Assembly (NCBI GenBank): GCA_902769185.1
Contig: CACXNV010000001.1
Coordinates: 4,021-68,020, forward strand
Origin: an uncultured Erysipelotrichaceae bacterium
GTDB taxonomy: Bacteria > Bacillota_I > Bacilli_A > RFN20 > CAG-826
DNA length: 64,000 nt
Direction: 5' to 3'
The translations under genes and the position numbers were made by a program. Below the pieces are notes generated by a model, which made no database searches, was not told the DNA's origin, and saw nothing but the letters and a program-made list of their open reading frames with translations. Positions 53,338-60,200 of this stretch are shown here, piece by piece. Each line of letters opens with the position of its first letter. The first letter of the stretch is position 1.

Positions 53338-54465
53338 ATGGAAATTGATAAGAATAAACTTAATGTTATAACCTTTTATCTTCCTCAATACCACGAAATA
53401 CCAGAAAACAATGCCGCATTCGGGAAAGGGTTTACAGAATGGACCAATGTCAGAAAAGCTAAACCTTTATTTGAGGGTCATAGACAACCAAGAGTACCAA
53501 AAGATAACAATTATTATTGCCTTCTAGATAACGGCAAGACCATGGAAGAACAAGCAAAGTTAGCAAAGGCTAATGGTATAACTGGCTTCTGCTACTATCA
53601 TTATTATTTTGCCCATGGGAAAAAGCTTTTAGAAAAACCATTAGAAGAAATGCTTGCTAATAAAAAAATTGATATTCCATTTTGCTTATGTTGGGCAAAT
53701 GAAAATTGGACCAATAAATGGGACGGAGGAGATAACGGAGTTATTGCTTATCAAGAGTATGACAAGTTAGAAGATATTGAAGAGCATGTTAAATATATAT
53801 GCGAATTTATGAAAGATGATAGATATATGACTCTTGATGGTAAACCAATATTTGTTTTATATCGACCTGATCTTATTCCTCATCTAAAAAAATATATCGC
53901 GGAAATGAAAAGATGCTTTACAAAATATGGATTTGGTAATGTTCTCTTTTTCATTCAGCAGCCATTCTATTATTTTGAAAAGAAGAACTTAAAACTATTT
54001 GATTATTATATTGAATATGAGCCTAGCTACTCTATTATCGAAGAGTTACATGAAAGTAAATCTTTAAAAAGATTTATTAAGAAGATATTGATTAAATTGC
54101 ATTTTAAACGATTCTTAGATAAAAAGCAGGACAAGAATAGGAAATTGACTATTAGAGATTATGACAAAGATTGGAATAGGATTTTAAATAGAAAGATCAA
54201 TTCCAAACAACTTGTTTCTGGCGGATTTATTGATTTTGATAACACTCCAAGAGTAAAAACTGGCGTTATGTATAAAGGCGCTAATCCTGAAAAGTTTGAT
54301 TTGTATTTTGGCCAATTATGTGAGAAAACATTAAAAGAGTATTCGCTCCCAATTATCTTTTTAATGGCGTGGAATGAATGGGGTGAAGGATGTTATCTTG
54401 AGCCAGACGAAGATTATGATACAGCGTATTTAAGTAGCATTAAGAAATACGTTACAAAAAAATAA
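53338..54465 (+). CDS. WbsX-family glycosyltransferase-like protein
   Basis: N-terminus ITFYLPQYHEIPENNAAFGKGFTEWTNV is the hallmark of the WbsX family. Confidence 0.7.
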   Translation: MEIDKNKLNVITFYLPQYHEIPENNAAFGKGFTEWTNVRKAKPLFEGHRQPRVPKDNNYYCLLDNGKTMEEQAKLAKANGITGFCYYHYYFAHGKKLLEKPLEEMLANKKIDIPFCLCWANENWTNKWDGGDNGVIAYQEYDKLEDIEEHVKYICEFMKDDRYMTLDGKPIFVLYRPDLIPHLKKYIAEMKRCFTKYGFGNVLFFIQQPFYYFEKKNLKLFDYYIEYEPSYSIIEELHESKSLKRFIKKILIKLHFKRFLDKKQDKNRKLTIRDYDKDWNRILNRKINSKQLVSGGFIDFDNTPRVKTGVMYKGANPEKFDLYFGQLCEKTLKEYSLPIIFLMAWNEWGEGCYLEPDEDYDTAYLSSIKKYVTKK

Positions 54466-54490
54466 TATTTTGTCCTATTTATCTATAAAT

Positions 54491-54520
54491 AACCGGCTAT
54501 TCAAAAGTAGTCGGTTTTTT
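54491..54520 (+). terminator. Rho-independent terminator
   Basis: Stem aaccggcta / tagtcggtt (one G.U) followed by T6. Confidence 0.6.
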
Positions 54521-54565
54521 ACTTGATTTGAATAATCAAATAATATATCATTTATTTCGCTAGTT

Positions 54566-54641
54566 GGTCCCTTAGCTCAGCTGGTAGAGCAACTGACTCT
54601 TAATCAGTGGGTCAAAGGTTCGAATCCTTTAGGGATCACCA
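54566..54641 (+). tRNA. tRNA-Lys (anticodon CUU), CCA encoded
   Basis: Hand-folded cloverleaf: acceptor GGTCCCT/AGGGATC, D stem GCTC/GAGC, anticodon stem ACTGA/TCAGT with loop CTCTTAA, T arm AAAGG-TTCGAAT-CCTTT. Confidence 0.92.
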
Positions 54642-54702
54642 GTTAACAAAGTAGAGCCTCGAGAAATCGGGGCTTTATATCTCGAATAGGAGGAATATAT
54701 TC

Positions 54703-55125
54703 ATGCTTATTGATGAAATCAAATCTGCCAATATCGAAGCCATGAAAGCTAGAGATAATACCTCTAGAGCAGTCTTATCCATTGTCTTAACAAAATATAA
54801 ACTCCAAGAAGTGGAATTAAAAAGTCAAGGCAAGGAAATTGGTGATGCTGAATTATTATCAATTATTCAAAAAGTCATTAAAGAACTTGAAGATGAAAAA
54901 GCTGGTTATTTAAAAGTTAATAACCAAGAAAGAGCAGATAATGTCTCAAAACAAATGGAAGTTATTTCTTCTTATCTTCCAAAACAATTAAGCGAAGAAG
55001 AGATTAAAAAGATTATTGATTCCTTAGAAGACAAGAGTGTTCCTAGCGTGATGAAACATTTTAAGATGAATTACGCTGGTCAAGTTGATATGTCTCTTGT
55101 AAATAGAGTTCTTCGTAGTTTATAA
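54703..55125 (+). CDS. yqeY: GatB/YqeY domain protein
   Basis: I......AMKARD..R...L......K..E typical N-terminus, 140 aa, and an AGGAGG RBS. Confidence 0.8.
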   Translation: MLIDEIKSANIEAMKARDNTSRAVLSIVLTKYKLQEVELKSQGKEIGDAELLSIIQKVIKELEDEKAGYLKVNNQERADNVSKQMEVISSYLPKQLSEEEIKKIIDSLEDKSVPSVMKHFKMNYAGQVDMSLVNRVLRSL

Positions 55126-55156
55126 TCTTTAAGCGGTGAATATTCACCTGCTTACT

Positions 55157-55230
55157 AGGGGTATCGTACAAAGGCAGTACTCCGGTCTCCAAAACCGTTA
55201 ATGTGGGTTCGATTCCTACTACCCCTGCCA
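55157..55230 (+). tRNA. tRNA-Trp (anticodon CCA), CCA encoded
   Basis: Acceptor AGGGGTA/TACCCCT, D stem GTAC/GTAC, anticodon loop CTCCAAA, T arm GTGGG-TTCGATT-CCTAC. It closely resembles Bacillus tRNA-Trp. Confidence 0.88.
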
Positions 55231-55305
55231 AAATCGTTGAAAATGCTCCCTTATTTTGGACCAAAATTGGTACAATAGATTGGGAGCTTTTATTACATAT
55301 AAAGT

Positions 55306-56046
55306 ATGAAAGAAAAATTTACTAATCAAATATTTGTTAACAAAGAAGATTATCAAAATGAATTTAAGTTTGATATTTGTTGGGTTATTGAAGAGTTAAA
55401 TAAACTCCCTTTTGATTTTTACATTAGTGGTGGAGTTATTTATAAGTTCTTTTTTAAAGAACACGCTAGATTTGTTAAAGACATAGATATTGTCATAAAG
55501 TGTGATTTAAAAGAAGTTGAATCAGCATTTAGACAACGTTTCAATGTTGTTAAATTTCAATCTGCTCCAATATCATATTTATATTTTTTAGAAACTTTTA
55601 TGTGCTTAATTGATGTTAATGGAAAGATTGTTCAAATAGACGGCATTAGATTAGATTTTTTTGATGAAATAAAACATATTATCTATAAAATTAATGATTT
55701 ATCATTTAAAGGAGTTTCTATAGAATATCTTATTTCAACAAAGATCGATGCTGTTACAAATGAAACTGAAAATCCATTTAAGCATTTAGTTGATACCTAT
55801 ACTGCTTCTTTAGCAGATCCTTCTTTTATTGATAAAAAAGAAATCAAAAAATATTTAGTGATATTAAATACTCAAAATAATAAAGTTAGAAAAGAATTTA
55901 AAAAATCAGAAATTCCTATAAAATTTAATATTGAACACAATAAAATCTTTACTGGGCCAGAATTTCTTCCAACTCTTCAGGCGGGTTATAACGTCTCTAA
56001 AGAAACAATGATTGAAGAAGTTAATAAATGGTTATTAACGTTTTAG
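55306..56046 (+). CDS. Hypothetical protein with a Pol-beta-type nucleotidyltransferase motif, possibly AbiEii/AbiGii-like
   Basis: ISGGVIYKFFFKEHARFVKDIDIVI (GG ... DxD), a later acidic strand (IRLDFF) and KHLVDTY. This is a weak assignment made by eye. Confidence 0.35.
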   Translation: MKEKFTNQIFVNKEDYQNEFKFDICWVIEELNKLPFDFYISGGVIYKFFFKEHARFVKDIDIVIKCDLKEVESAFRQRFNVVKFQSAPISYLYFLETFMCLIDVNGKIVQIDGIRLDFFDEIKHIIYKINDLSFKGVSIEYLISTKIDAVTNETENPFKHLVDTYTASLADPSFIDKKEIKKYLVILNTQNNKVRKEFKKSEIPIKFNIEHNKIFTGPEFLPTLQAGYNVSKETMIEEVNKWLLTF

Positions 56047-56118
56047 AGATTTGTTTGTGTGGCACATTTGTGACACCTGCACTGATAAAGTATTAATGTA
56101 AAAAAGGAGTTTGTATCT

Positions 56119-56406
56119 ATGAAAAAAGAATTATTAAAAGGATTAACCGAAGAACAAATTGCTAAAGCTAAAGCATGCAAAAGCCAAGAAGAATTATTAA
56201 AACTCGCAAAGGCAGAAGGCGTTACTCTTAGCGAAGAACAATTGGCTGCGGTTAACGGTGGCTTCTGTAGCGACACAACAGTTTATGCAACATGCCCTAA
56301 GTGTGGTACAAAGGTTACTAAGCAAGCTTATAAACAATCATATAGTTATATATATGAGGAATTCACTTGCCCAGAATGTGGTCATAAATGGACCACTAAA
56401 TGTTAA
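56119..56406 (+). CDS. Small peptide: Nif11-like leader with a double-glycine motif fused to a Cys-rich zinc-ribbon-like core
   Basis: AKACKSQEELLKLAKAEGVTLSEEQLAAVNGG resembles Nif11-type leaders that end in GG. The core is FCSDTTVYATCPKCG...CPECGHKWTTKC. AAGGAG lies 8 nt before the ATG. Confidence 0.6.
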   Translation: MKKELLKGLTEEQIAKAKACKSQEELLKLAKAEGVTLSEEQLAAVNGGFCSDTTVYATCPKCGTKVTKQAYKQSYSYIYEEFTCPECGHKWTTKC

Positions 56407-56430
56407 GGCATATTAATTTGACATTTTAAA

Positions 56431-56459
56431 GAGAAGCCTTGTAATAGAGGCTCTTTTTT
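56431..56459. terminator. Bidirectional terminator between the convergent peptide and tetR genes
   Basis: Imperfect hairpin gaagcct / aggctc with T6 downstream and an A-rich stretch upstream. Confidence 0.45.
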
Positions 56460-56469
56460 ATCACTAGAA

Positions 56470-57057
56470 TTACATTGCTTTCATCATTGACATACTAATC
56501 TTAGCTAATAAACGACAAATCTTTTTACTGTCTTCTTTTACTTTTTTCTTACTCTTATTAGTTTTTAATTGTTGAGCGTAGTAAATACATGAATTATATA
56601 ATCCTTCAAAGAAGAAGACCGCTATATAATCGCTAGGAATATCATAACCTCCAGAATTTACTATTTCAGACATATATGCTTTGTAATTGTTAAATAAAGC
56701 AGTTTTAAATATCTCCAGAGGAAGAGTTTCACCTTTATAAGTGAGATTAGCAATTTGATTATAATGTTTTTCTACCCAGTTATAAGTAGCCACTAAAGTT
56801 TGATATTCAATTTCTTCTGTATCTTTTTCTTTTCTTAATATCTTAGCGTAATCTTCGTTATATTCTGTATTGATTAATTCAATAGAGGCTTCCGCTAATA
56901 AGGCTTCTTTATCTTTATAGTATTTATAAAAAGTCATTTTTGTTTTATTTGCTACAGCGCATATCTCGTTAATTGTGATATCGTGGTAGTTCTTATTCTC
57001 TAATAATCCAAATAAAGCGTTTGCGAATTCTTTTTTAGTTTTAACTATATTTCCCAT
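56470..57057 (-). CDS. TetR/AcrR family transcriptional regulator
   Basis: KTKKEFANALFGLLENKNYHDITINEICAVANKTKMTFYKYYKDKEAL is a TetR HTH. I prefer the start at MGNIVK (57057) to 57093. Confidence 0.8.
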   Translation of the reverse strand: MGNIVKTKKEFANALFGLLENKNYHDITINEICAVANKTKMTFYKYYKDKEALLAEASIELINTEYNEDYAKILRKEKDTEEIEYQTLVATYNWVEKHYNQIANLTYKGETLPLEIFKTALFNNYKAYMSEIVNSGGYDIPSDYIAVFFFEGLYNSCIYYAQQLKTNKSKKKVKEDSKKICRLLAKISMSMMKAM

Positions 57058-57173
57058 ATCTATACATCTTTCAACTTTTACATTATAAAACAAATAAGTT
57101 TACTTTAAATATGCGAAAGTATAGTTTTGATATCTTTTTATTGAATATATTATTTTGATTTATTACTTTATTA

Positions 57174-57187
57174 GTGAGTAAACTCAC
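57174..57187. promoter_or_regulatory. Candidate TetR operator
   Basis: Palindrome GTGAGTaaACTCAC in the divergent intergenic region. An inverted copy of its AGTAAACT half-site lies at 57097-57104. Confidence 0.4.
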
Positions 57188-57237
57188 AAATTTGTCTATG
57201 CTATGCGCGTGGAAAATTAAAACCAGGAGGTGTCCAT

Positions 57238-60200
57238 ATGAATAGACACATACAAAAATTATCAATTACTCTTATTTCGTTAACGATGGTCCTATCTGGA
57301 TGTGGCAAGGCCGATCCTGATAACCACTCATGGGTCATTGATGATCAGACTATTGAAAACGCTATACCGCTAAATTCGTTGATTGTCTCACACGAGCGCG
57401 ATTTAGTTGTGCGTCTTGAAGCAGAAGGAGTGACATTTAATTCTAACTTCACAAAAGATGCGATTCTTATTCGTGATATGGGATTAGAGTTACCTGAAAA
57501 AGAAGGGGATAACACTTTATCATATGAAGATATTAAAGCTGTTTCTCTTACTGATTATGCAGCGGATGTTGTTTCTTTTGGCACCGCTGTTGAGATTACT
57601 ATTCCTAAAAATCTAAAAGAATCCTCATTTGCAGCGATTATTGCCCCATATGCGAATAATAAAGGAGTTATTGCTTATTCTTCTTTCTCTGGCTCTGAAT
57701 CTGTAATTACATTAAGTGAAGGTAAATTTGAGCAAATTGGTTCAGATTATGTTGGTGGCTATGATGAGAATCATACATTTGTTTTTAAATATGAAAACCT
57801 CACATTAAGCGAAGATTTCGATGTAGAAGATATTTCTCTTCTTGGCGCTTTTGAAAATTGGATTGTTAAAGACATTCATACTGATACAGAAGGCGTTATC
57901 ATTTTAGAAACTAGTGGTTTAGCTTCTAGTGAAGAAAGTGGTGCAATTATTTTTGATGACAGTACTTTCGTAGAAGAAAGAGGAGGAGTCTTCTCTTATC
58001 GTGTTTTATATCCAAGTGCTGCTTTAGTAGAGAATTCTGTTCGATTTGATGAGGATGATAAAACGTTCTCTTTCGATGTTGCATTAATCGACTGTGAAAT
58101 TAAAAAAGATTTCTCACTTAAAGATGTGACATTAATCGATGGATTTACTATTAATGAAGCATATTATGTCGCGGAAACAAAAACTGCTACATTTGTTTTA
58201 GATGCAGAAGAGTATGATTCCTTAACTGAAGTTATCGCTGAACTTGAACAACTTACAATCTCAATTGGTGGTGAATTTGACCAAGAAGTAGCCTTTGATT
58301 TCCATGAACCAGAAGTGTTCGCGATTGCGTCTAATGAAAATAAAAAAGTTTGTATTGACATCTATTCATTTGATGGAGACCTTTCTTTAGAAAGATCTGC
58401 AATTACTATTGAATCCGAATTTGAAGTTGACGAAGAGGAAGAAGAGCTTCTTTCAATAGATGAGGCTACTCTTACTAAAGTTGGAAAAGGATATCAATTA
58501 ACTTGGGAAAAAGAGATTGATTACCCAGTTTATGGAACGCTCACTATTGATTCTGTTGATGTTTCTTATCCTAATGGAAATAAGTTTACAGTTGTAGGTT
58601 CTAGTATCGACTTTGGATGTGATTATTATCAAGTTGATTCCGAACAAAATAGATTATTAAAACCTGCAATATATAGATATGTCACTCCAACTAGTTTAGC
58701 GAATATGGATGATACATATGTTCAATATGCCTATGACTCTTCCCTTGAAGATAAATCAACAGCGATTAGCGCTGTTAATGCTACTGTTCAAACAGTGTTA
58801 ACCGTTCTTTCTGTTGCTTTTGAACTCGCTGCTTCAGAACTTAGCAAGTTTGCTTGTGGTGGTATTATTGGTATTCTTTTAGGAGCGCTAGGTCTTGCTG
58901 GTGCCGCTGCTGTTCTTGATCCAACTGCAGCTATGTTACAAGAAATTCTTAATGTTGTTTCGGGAATTAATGAAACTGTAAAAAGAATGGAAAAAACTTT
59001 GTCTGAAGTTTCCTATAAGACCGATATGGTACTTTTAAGAGAAAGACTTAATTCTGATGAAAATAAACTCATCGCGTTACGTGCGCGTCAATTAGAATTC
59101 CAATCTGAAGATGCAAAAGTTACACAATATGAAAAGAAAATGCTTACAGTTGCTAATCGTTATCTCACATCTATTTTTGATGGAAACAGCAATAAAAAAG
59201 CAAGTAAATATAATGCACCTTATGACTATAACGTTGTCGTTGTAGAAGGTAAAAATAAAAAGGGAGAACTTGAAAAAACATCAACAATTTTACTTGATGA
59301 TGATAGCTTTGATGAAACATTTGACGAAGGAACTATTGTCTCCTCATATGCTTTCTCTTTTGGAAGCAAAAACAATTTAAAAAACACTTTCAAAGAAAAT
59401 ACACTTTCAAAATATAAAAACAAAAAAACAGTTGATAAGGTAGTAGGAGCGGCTGCAATTAGCGACATTAAAGCCGCAATCGAAAATGGTCTTATTACTT
59501 TCAAAACCAACGATTGGAGTGGTAGCGAAATTCCTGATATCAGCACTGATGCAAAACTTGAAGCAGTTGCAAAAGATATCTATCGTGCTTTATATCTTTT
59601 TGCCGAACGTGAAGCATTACGTGACGTTGATGGCGAATCCTTTGTTCTTCAAGCTGTTGATTATATGCAACGTTTCTCTGGAACTGGAAGTTATACTAGA
59701 CCTGCTGCTGATATTGACTACGAGATGCTCAAACTTACATATGGTTTCCAATCCGAAGCAGAAGATAAGATCCATAATTACCGTATCACCGCTGCTGATC
59801 GTTTGCTTAAAATTTATAACCTAGCGACAACAATCTGCGCAATTGATCCAGATATTTCTTCTTATGGCGATTTAACAAAAGCCTATAAAGCTTCGATTGC
59901 TTACCTAAAACAAAATAAGATGGTGAAATCTAACGCTGATAAAAAAGCTGTTATGGATAGAAGTAAGATTACTCTTCCTCAAGACGTCAAACTTGATTAC
60001 TGCTACGTCAGCGAAAGTTGGGTACGTGGTGGCCAATTAATGACCGGTTTTAAAGCGACTAGCGATAAAACTAAAGAAGGAAAGTGGCAAAACTTTGATA
60101 TCGCTGATGTCTCTGGCGAAATTAGTGGATCACTCCAATCAAATATGAATAATGTCACACCAATGAGTTCGGTCAAGCCATATTTATTCGGCTTAGAAGA

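Follow-up and report, generated by a model that had tools for sequence, protein, structure and literature searches.

Peptide precursors of the N11P family (TIGR03798), which include ProcA and the Lachnospiraceae peptides LahA1-9, carry a helical Nif11-like leader of ~69-80 residues with a ...LSxEQLxAVxGG end, after which conservation stops at the Gly-Gly and a hypervariable region follows, a ~23-amino acid (aa) low-complexity segment of Cys, Ser, Thr, and Gly. Both the N11P motif ELSDEELEAVAGG and a double-glycine logo common to NHLP, N11P, and Gram-positive leaders have been published, as has the TIGR03794/TIGR03796/TIGR03797 export cassette that defines NHLP/N11P systems (Haft 2010). LahT-type C39 peptidase domains (LahT150) cut Nif11-type leaders and need only the last ~13 leader residues. 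In class II double-glycine bacteriocins (TIGR01847; PCAT/AMS), a GG motif preceded by hydrophobic residues at -4, -7, and -12 is joined to an amphipathic or disulfide-stabilized peptide, which leaves the cell through a dedicated C39 ATP-binding cassette (ABC) exporter. Here, we describe a 95-aa precursor encoded in a 64,000-nucleotide stretch of DNA from an uncultured Erysipelotrichaceae bacterium (GenBank assembly GCA_902769185.1, contig CACXNV010000001.1, positions 4,021 to 68,020 of the forward strand), which we call the window and number from its first letter. With a probability of about 0.68, this gene encodes the precursor of an exported, bacteriocin-like peptide, in which a Nif11-like double-glycine leader is followed by a ~5.4-kDa cargo with a four-Cys zinc ribbon. 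This agrees in the main with the original prediction made from the DNA letters, which had read the gene as an orphan precursor of what could be an exported Cys-rich or metal-binding peptide; corrections are given below, with export and zinc binding kept as predicted properties.

The precursor open reading frame (ORF) lies at 56119-56406 on the forward strand and encodes 95 aa plus a stop codon, an exact match to the translation on which the original prediction had been built, and the Gly-Gly codons are where they had been placed. The precursor has the following parts:

56119-56262, forward strand: leader, residues 1-48, divergent Nif11-like and helical, ending in LSEEQLAAVNGG and holding the invariant C20.

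56257-56262, forward strand: Gly47-Gly48, invariant or near-invariant, the predicted C39-peptidase cleavage site by N11P and double-glycine precedent.

56263-56403, forward strand: core, residues 49-95, with C50 and the two knuckles C59-P-K-C62-G and C84-P-E-C87-G-H-K-W.

A protein search identified 625 homologs, nearly all of 89-103 aa. When only the first 50 residues were used, 535 clusters at 50% identity were found, and the match was always N-terminal, in proteins 45-159 aa long. The family is found in Erysipelotrichaceae/Bacilli and Lachnospiraceae of the rumen. At least 21 rumen metagenome contigs encode the identical protein with unchanged gene order, and the nearest genome is the uncultured Erysipelotrichaceae metagenome-assembled genome (MAG) RUG14566, with a nucleotide identity of 92-94%. 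Compared with the closest ortholog (locus L001 of RUG14566), the ratio of nonsynonymous to synonymous substitution rates (dN/dS) is 0.15 for the whole gene and 0.03 for the core. The precursor gene is under purifying selection and its function is retained. Among distant orthologs, dN/dS is higher in the core than in the leader. Genomes were also scanned for the family, which yielded 227 members at 78 loci in rumen/gut MAGs assigned to Erysipelotrichaceae, Bacilli or "Bacillales", and Lachnospiraceae, with one labeled Candidatus Saccharibacteria. Tandem arrays are common (11 copies at L009, 15 tblastn matches at L014), and a single MAG may have several loci; the 64-kb window has a single copy. 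In short, the precursor is a member of a sizable, so far undescribed family, whose genes in relatives are arrayed in up to ~15 copies next to exporters dedicated to peptides. No Nif11-leader zinc-ribbon family is described in the literature searched. No family relatives were found in the viral contigs searched, which makes a phage or anti-defense origin unlikely.

Conservation divides the protein at the Gly-Gly. Most of the invariant alignment columns fall within the N-terminal 48 aa, where the conserved positions are L5, G8, L9, E12, Q13, C20, A30, E33, L37, E40, Q41, V45, G47, and G48. Past G48, only C50 and the knuckle Cys are conserved, together with P60 and G63 (each ≥90%). In the homolog alignments, C59, C62, and C87 are invariant and C84 is conserved at ≥90%; C50 is near-invariant and lies 0-4 residues past the GG. 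By contrast, the terminal C95 is not conserved. Treating the core as a six-Cys unit, as had been proposed, was thus wrong, because C95 varies and the leader has an invariant Cys of its own. The conservation pattern replaces it by one leader Cys (C20), one junction Cys (C50), and a Cys4 ribbon.

Assignment of the leader to the Nif11 type does not follow from scans of the window protein. TIGR03798 scores 16.2 bits on it (cutoff 32.3), PF07862 scores 19.1 bits (cutoff 23.8), and TIGR01847 scores 13.6 bits (cutoff 15.7), so that the single protein has no significant hit to the leader models, a result that formally counts against the proposed leader, and membership is not settled by these scans alone. 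Across the family, TIGR03798 is the commonest match, with 65 of 79 members detected at E ≤ 0.01 (best 2e-5), apparently all below the cutoff, and a few homologs have a precomputed PF07862 match or are named "Nif11 family protein". The leader end, TLSEEQLAAVNGG in the window and ELTDEQLEAVSGG in the family consensus, closely fits the published N11P motif, and V45 (-4), L42 (-7), and L37 (-12) are invariant or ≥90% conserved. An AlphaFold2 (AF2) model of the precursor, computed with database homologs (predicted local distance difference test, pLDDT, 68), has helices at residues 3-6, 11-19, 23-32, and 39-46. Taken together, the evidence from the family and from genomic context (see below) outweighs the sub-threshold score of the window protein, and we retain the Nif11-type assignment for the leader.

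Comparison of paralogs within one array gives a leader identity of 73-83% versus a core identity of 27-35%. Furthermore, the leader with its GG-x-C junction is attached to at least three unrelated core types, namely the zinc ribbon and two short cores, in which an acidic low-complexity linker precedes a C-terminal [HR][RK]KI[DE]S or P[IV]xNPF end. The conserved front half is most likely a cleavable export tag. The family resembles N11P in its helical leader with the corresponding LSxEQLxAVxGG end, in the hypervariability that begins past the Gly-Gly, in its large paralogous expansions with dispersed and clustered copies, in the use of one leader for several core types, and, at the loci of relatives, in the presence of an ABC pair of which one subunit has a C39 peptidase. 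It differs from N11P in that the leader has 48 aa, scores below the curated cutoffs and holds the invariant C20, the core is a ~47-aa ribbon-like domain instead of a short low-complexity segment, the accompanying genes encode a HipA-like protein, in some cases a radical-SAM/SPASM enzyme, a membrane protein resembling a truncated HlyD, and a STAS/PP2C partner-switching module, and the hosts are rumen Bacillota and not cyanobacteria. With class II bacteriocins, the family shares the GG motif, the hydrophobic -4/-7/-12 positions, the dedicated C39-ABC exporter, the multi-gene loci and, possibly, an unmodified cargo. Unlike theirs, its leader is Nif11-like and two to three times longer, its cargo resembles a Cys4 zinc ribbon, small immunity genes are not apparent next to the genes of its arrays, and the TIGR01847 score is below the cutoff. 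Judged by these sequence features, the protein probably functions as precursors of the N11P or double-glycine kind do. A direct relationship to LahA1-9 was rejected, as the leaders of these Lachnospiraceae peptides begin with MNENLEKFF... and have a much greater length; the LahA peptides form a separate branch with longer leaders.

The predicted cleavage product, FCSD...TKC, has 47 aa as had been claimed, and its mass is 5430 Da (pI 8.3), not ~5.3 kDa. Both CPxCG knuckles that had been noticed are present (C59/C62 and C84/C87), and they form part of a CPxCG ... CxxCGHxW signature with conserved Pro, Gly, and Trp. The spacing between the knuckles ranges from 13 to 30 residues across the family, with a median of 20. 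A family profile matches the TFS/RPB9 ribbon of PDB entry 1qyp with E = 2.8e-4 over an alignment that spans both knuckles, TFIIS_C (PF01096) is precomputed on three homologs, Pfam zinc-ribbon matches are likewise precomputed within the family, and Zn_ribbon_3 scores 25.5 bits on the window protein (cutoff 27). In the AF2 model, the core has strands at residues 54-58, 65-69, 79-83, and 90-94. The idea of a miniature zinc ribbon is therefore backed by the fit of the core profile to solved TFS/RPB9 zinc ribbons, and the core is predicted to be a TFS/RPB9-like zinc ribbon, in which the four knuckle Cys would bind zinc. What the core has in common with the TFS/TFIIS/RPB9 ribbons is the paired-knuckle signature, the ~20-residue separation, and a β-rich predicted fold, whereas the similarity is weak, the loop is hypervariable in sequence and length, there is no link to transcription, and the domain is fused to an export leader.

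The window was said to hold no maturation enzyme and no peptidase-containing exporter. This is borne out by tblastn with the machinery proteins, which found no radical-SAM or C39-ABC gene in the window and generic ABC ATPase similarity only. When the proteins encoded next to the family loci were clustered and annotated, a recurrent operon emerged beside the arrays of relatives, with these components:

c3, ~397 aa: HipA-like protein; HipA_C matches weakly in seven of eight members, and PADLOC PDC-M03A scores 31 bits.

Short-tailed family member, 61-78 aa: optional in the operon.

Radical-SAM/SPASM enzyme, 464 aa: optional, Radical_SAM 72 bits and SPASM 34 bits, in no characterized maturase family.

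c7, ~130 aa: small membrane protein, with a weak match to the N terminus of the NHLP HlyD-like protein (TIGR03794).

ABC exporter with C39 peptidase, 722 aa: TIGR03796 836 bits (cutoff 853) and Peptidase_C39 109 bits.

Second ABC subunit, 727 aa: TIGR03797 661 bits (cutoff 709).

STAS protein, ~99 aa: PF01740 52 bits.

SpoIIE/PP2C domain fused to an RsbW-like kinase, 481-621 aa: sometimes present.

Family copies in relatives thus adjoin NHLP-type C39-ABC pairs and radical-SAM/SPASM genes, which supports the proposal of a Nif11-type leader on a zinc-ribbon core with its machinery encoded elsewhere. The radical-SAM/SPASM gene is present at five of the 78 loci, each time beside a short-tailed member, and the exporter operons of L069 and L014 lack it. 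Its best NCBIfam matches score 60-99 bits against cutoffs of 340-725 and include the peptide maturases ScmE, DynA, WgkB, StsB, and PapB. Because it is optional and directly adjoins the short-tailed genes, we interpret the enzyme as one that matures the short-tailed peptides. Members with a zinc ribbon may be co-exported cargo that perhaps needs no radical-SAM modification. Neither LanM nor a cyclodehydratase was seen among the recurrent neighbors examined. In MAG RUG14810, one locus (L003) is syntenic with the window and another (L018) is a cluster locus, in which c3, the radical-SAM gene, and c7 are present and an ABC gene begins at the locus edge. A genome can thus have satellite copies on one contig and the machinery on another.

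Further details concern individual components of these clusters. The c3 gene (L020:8440-9639, with homologs at L007, L014, L018, L027, L045, L060, and L069) is the first gene of the export operon and a more regular companion of the exporter than the radical-SAM gene. Its HipA_C match covers a region resembling a DxHxxN catalytic loop, with no model above cutoff, and searches of PDB by phmmer and with a profile found nothing. The short-tailed members (60-80 aa) are encoded at L020:9664-9900, L027:2059-2259, L045:6533-6718, L014:17550-17753, and L049:8265-8471, and include proteins P0130, P0141, P0157, P0161, P0172, and P0221; at L020, L027, and L045 the gene lies directly 5′ of the radical-SAM/SPASM gene. 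These peptides are probably a separate, uncharacterized class of RiPPs, peptides made by the ribosome and modified after translation. A partner-switching module, STAS plus SpoIIE/PP2C-RsbW-like HATPase_c_2, is found at L027:9058-10902, L049:4411-8131, and L069:6485-7930 (reverse strand), and an example of the STAS gene at an export cluster is L020:16204-16503. In or beside arrays there is also a ~278-aa protein (L032:257-1093, L014:3072-3908, L013:9894-10730, and L066:1779-2615) that by eye looks like a ParE-like toxin N terminus joined to a GNAT acetyltransferase-like C terminus. A recurrent ORF cluster, c5, was discarded as an artefact, since it is an antisense reading of the conserved leader DNA.

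The window copy has its own transcription and translation signals, as follows:

56058-56075, forward strand: direct repeat TGTGGCA-CATT-TGTGACA, two 7-bp repeats with an 11-bp period, a putative activator site.

56083-56091, forward strand: extended -10-like box TGATAAAGT, 7 nt past the repeat element, a predicted promoter component.

56104-56109, forward strand: ribosome-binding site AAGGAG, 9 nt 5′ of the ATG, kept as AaGGaG in the family consensus.

56435-56460, forward strand: intrinsic-terminator-like hairpin and T-run, with the hairpin at 56435-56452 (6-bp stem, three GC pairs) followed by CTTTTTTATC.

The 18-bp element TGTGRCA-N4-TGTGRCA matches the window once (0.06 matches expected), 61 nt before the ATG. 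In the related loci (1.04 Mb), there are 130 matches, 108 of which are placed 56-61 nt upstream of a family ATG, and other sites precede c3, c7, an ABC gene, and an NTase (nucleotidyltransferase) gene. Of 100 family promoters, 77 have a TGnTAnnnT box at a constant offset of +25 relative to the start of the motif, and the consensus of these 100 sequences reads TGTGgCACaTTTGTGACA - 7 nt - TGaTAa.aT ... AaGGaG. With its 11-bp period and its end 10 bp before the -10 hexamer, the pair of 7-bp direct repeats resembles a PhoB/OmpR-type activator box. A σ54 reading of the element, as TGGCAC-N5-TGACA, was rejected: the -12 GC is usually AC, and a direct repeat with an extended -10 box is seen instead. 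The analysis turned up neither a σ factor nor a DNA-binding regulator for this repeat. An Rfam scan of 54400-57400 returned two tRNAs and no RNA family in the conserved 5′ region. The element also lies 5′ of genes for proteins containing Lipase_3, Big_3/lectin, or InlB repeats, which are taken to be secreted or surface proteins (L018:10757-12760, L035:1153-3150 on the reverse strand, L066:12057-14054 on the reverse strand, L014:253-2184 on the reverse strand, L015:14763-15746 on the reverse strand, and L023:5052-6452). With the element upstream of such large secreted-type genes, the regulon seems to extend beyond the peptides. Lachnospiraceae copies (e.g., L037:10001-12385, L074:133-4583, and L047) lack the TGTGRCA repeat, and several have another upstream sequence, AATGTGGTATATTATTGATAAGAATAACAGGGGG, which suggests a lineage-specific promoter.

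The neighbors described for the gene, tRNA-Trp and an upstream gene with AbiEii similarity, are confirmed. The tRNA-Trp gene is at 55157-55230, and the next gene downstream is the upstream neighbor of the precursor gene:

55306-56046, forward strand: NTase-like gene, 246 aa, with a DUF2204/AbiEii-like NTase fold, the conserved upstream partner of the subclade to which the window peptide belongs.

In Pfam, this protein matches DUF2204 with 27.0 bits (cutoff 20.3) and AbiEii (PF08843) with 24.9 bits (cutoff 22.5), with no single stretch passing, and in PADLOC it matches AbiEii with 18.8 bits. Homologs lie 60-73 nt upstream of a family member at 10 loci with differing flanks, and dN/dS against L001 is 0.19. 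The NTase and peptide genes form a 1.2-kb cassette (window 55236-56429, L001 8652-9834) that is 89.8% identical between the two loci, versus ~94% for the flanks. In the window, the cassette directly follows tRNA-Trp, whereas in L001 it comes after the TetR and ~1179-aa genes, at the place taken by a GGDEF gene (60912-62042) in the window. The different position in L001 shows that the pair behaves as a unit. Describing the peptide gene as an orphan, as had been done, is accurate as regards an exporter or maturase in the window and overstated otherwise, because the gene belongs to a conserved two-gene module and has the promoter of the family regulon. We view the window copy as a satellite of the export system that probably travels as a two-gene module with the NTase-fold protein, and propose that the latter could be an immunity factor for the peptide or a modifier of it. 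As in AbiE, a type IV toxin-antitoxin and abortive-infection pair of AbiEi and the GTP-specific NTase toxin AbiEii, an AbiEii/DUF2204-like NTase-fold protein is part of a conserved two-gene module found at varying positions in close relatives. Unlike in AbiE, the partner is a downstream 95-aa leader-plus-ribbon peptide and not an upstream AbiEi transcriptional antitoxin, the AbiEii model matches are weak, and most family members have no NTase. No AbiEi winged-helix gene lies upstream of the NTase gene, which is preceded by tRNA-Trp.

Other genes surround the cassette. A 1179-aa protein with a lipoprotein-like N terminus (...LSGCGK; 57238-60777) is conserved next to it and matches nothing in Pfam, NCBIfam, or PADLOC, and its gene is accompanied by a divergently oriented TetR-family gene (56470-57093). 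Both the window and L079 have a Glyco_tran_WbsX-family gene (53338-54465 in the window) between a P-type ATPase gene and tRNA-Lys, and L001 lacks it. One metagenomic version of the window locus has a stretch inserted between the YqeY and NTase genes (L080:1528-3367), which contains a gene for a σ70 protein resembling extracytoplasmic function σ factors (Sigma70_r2 and r4) and two unannotated genes.

We picture the following course of events. Transcription would start from an activator-dependent promoter, in which two 7-bp repeats take the place of a -35 box and are combined with an extended -10, a promoter type that other family members and the export operon of relatives appear to have in common with the window gene. 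Translation would give the 95-aa precursor, whose leader end, LSxxQLxxVxGG, would be recognized by the C39 domain of an NHLP-type ABC pair presumably encoded elsewhere in the genome. The leader would be cut after Gly48 and the 47-aa FCSD...TKC peptide released outside the cell, where it may fold around zinc. There, its targets would be neighboring cells, against which it would most likely serve as a bacteriocin-like antagonist within a diversified set, with the hypervariable inter-knuckle loop setting its specificity.

Several observations weigh against this scheme. The curated leader and zinc-ribbon models all score below cutoff on the window protein, and both ABC proteins of the export operon are slightly under the equivalog cutoffs of TIGR03796 and TIGR03797. 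The predicted structure is of moderate confidence (pLDDT 68), and a Foldseek comparison of it with PDB returned nothing significant (best E 0.15). An exporter or maturase is also absent within 10 kb of three RUG14566 loci (L001, L010, and L030), no immunity gene is evident inside the arrays, where the spacers are short and have no extra ORFs, and no precedent for secreted zinc-ribbon peptides was found in the literature searched. Finally, C39 recognition needs neither the long, strongly conserved N-terminal part of the leader nor the invariant C20 and C50. These features hint at an extra partner, possibly a modifying enzyme, which makes it uncertain that the peptide is unmodified; c3, the NTase, or the radical-SAM enzyme may have a modifying role. 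The peptide could then be a true RiPP, with C50 and/or the knuckle Cys not serving as zinc ligands but modified, either into sacti- or ranthipeptide thioethers or by the HipA-like or NTase protein, and with a mature product cross-linked or otherwise altered by enzymes encoded elsewhere. This alternative is doubtful, but it accounts for leader and Cys features that export alone leaves unexplained, and it gains from the radical-SAM/SPASM protein (72 and 34 bits) found in five cluster loci with the same leader, from the maturases among the NCBIfam similarities of that protein (far below cutoffs), from the GG-x-C junction common to the short-tailed members that directly adjoin the radical-SAM gene, and from the HipA-like and NTase-fold proteins as constant neighbors. 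It has to contend with the L069 and L014 exporter operons, which do without a radical-SAM gene, and with the position of that gene elsewhere, next to the short-tailed peptide and not to zinc-ribbon genes. Moreover, the CPxCG ... CxxCGHxW signature and the TFS/RPB9 profile match have the look of a structural zinc site, and the window has no maturase.

Pairing with the NTase gene could also mean that the product is an intracellular zinc-ribbon protein, for example the antitoxin or regulator in an AbiE-like toxin-antitoxin or defense pair with the NTase, which is neither cleaved nor exported. Zinc ribbons are typically intracellular, the NTase matches AbiEii and DUF2204, and the pair is kept at 10 loci with different flanks and a 60-73-nt spacing, and stands at another position in the close relative L001. 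Such a role is nevertheless very unlikely, since most family members have no NTase neighbor and occur in arrays (up to ~15 copies) beside C39-ABC exporters, the GG junction and double-glycine recognition motif are conserved, and the same leader bears non-ribbon cores. In addition, AbiEi-like features are missing from the partner, the two genes stand in the opposite order to that of AbiE, the PADLOC match is weak (18.8 bits), the regulon promoter of the peptide gene sits between the two genes, and no relatives are found on viral contigs. That the exported peptide would be a quorum-sensing pheromone and not an antagonist seems to us scarcely credible. A double-glycine leader, a regulon promoter that looks activator-dependent, and a hybrid histidine kinase with a solute-binding protein and a partner-switching module near arrays would all suit a signal, and 14 of 79 members weakly match the VP1 pheromone model, but these matches are probably due to the GG leader, and 10-15 hypervariable paralogs per array suit an arsenal and not a signal. 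A folded core of ~47 aa is also much larger than known Gram-positive pheromones. We therefore continue to favor an exported, bacteriocin-like zinc-ribbon peptide.

The cargoes known for NHLP/Nif11-type export, among them prochlorosins, TOMMs, and lanthipeptides, are short peptides that carry many modifications. In uncultured rumen Bacillota, this kind of export seems to carry a folded zinc-ribbon domain, whose loop is hypervariable and which is expanded into arrays and tied to a dedicated regulon. If true, this would be a new cargo class for double-glycine secretion and a compact natural peptide-library scaffold, made of a conserved leader, four fixed Cys, and a free ~20-residue loop, and would give insight into how rumen Erysipelotrichaceae and Lachnospiraceae compete. 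The short-tailed peptides, with the radical-SAM/SPASM enzyme and the HipA-like protein, would make up a separate uncharacterized RiPP pathway that is worth mining. More tentatively, these may be the first secreted hypervariable zinc-ribbon mini-proteins, a PCAT-exported arsenal of up to ~15 metal-stabilized, otherwise unmodified ~45-aa domains per locus, with specificity set by the loop and the NTase as dedicated immunity protein or modifier. Such an arsenal, if real, would give the anaerobic communities of the gut a bacteriocin or inter-bacterial effector of a new structural class.

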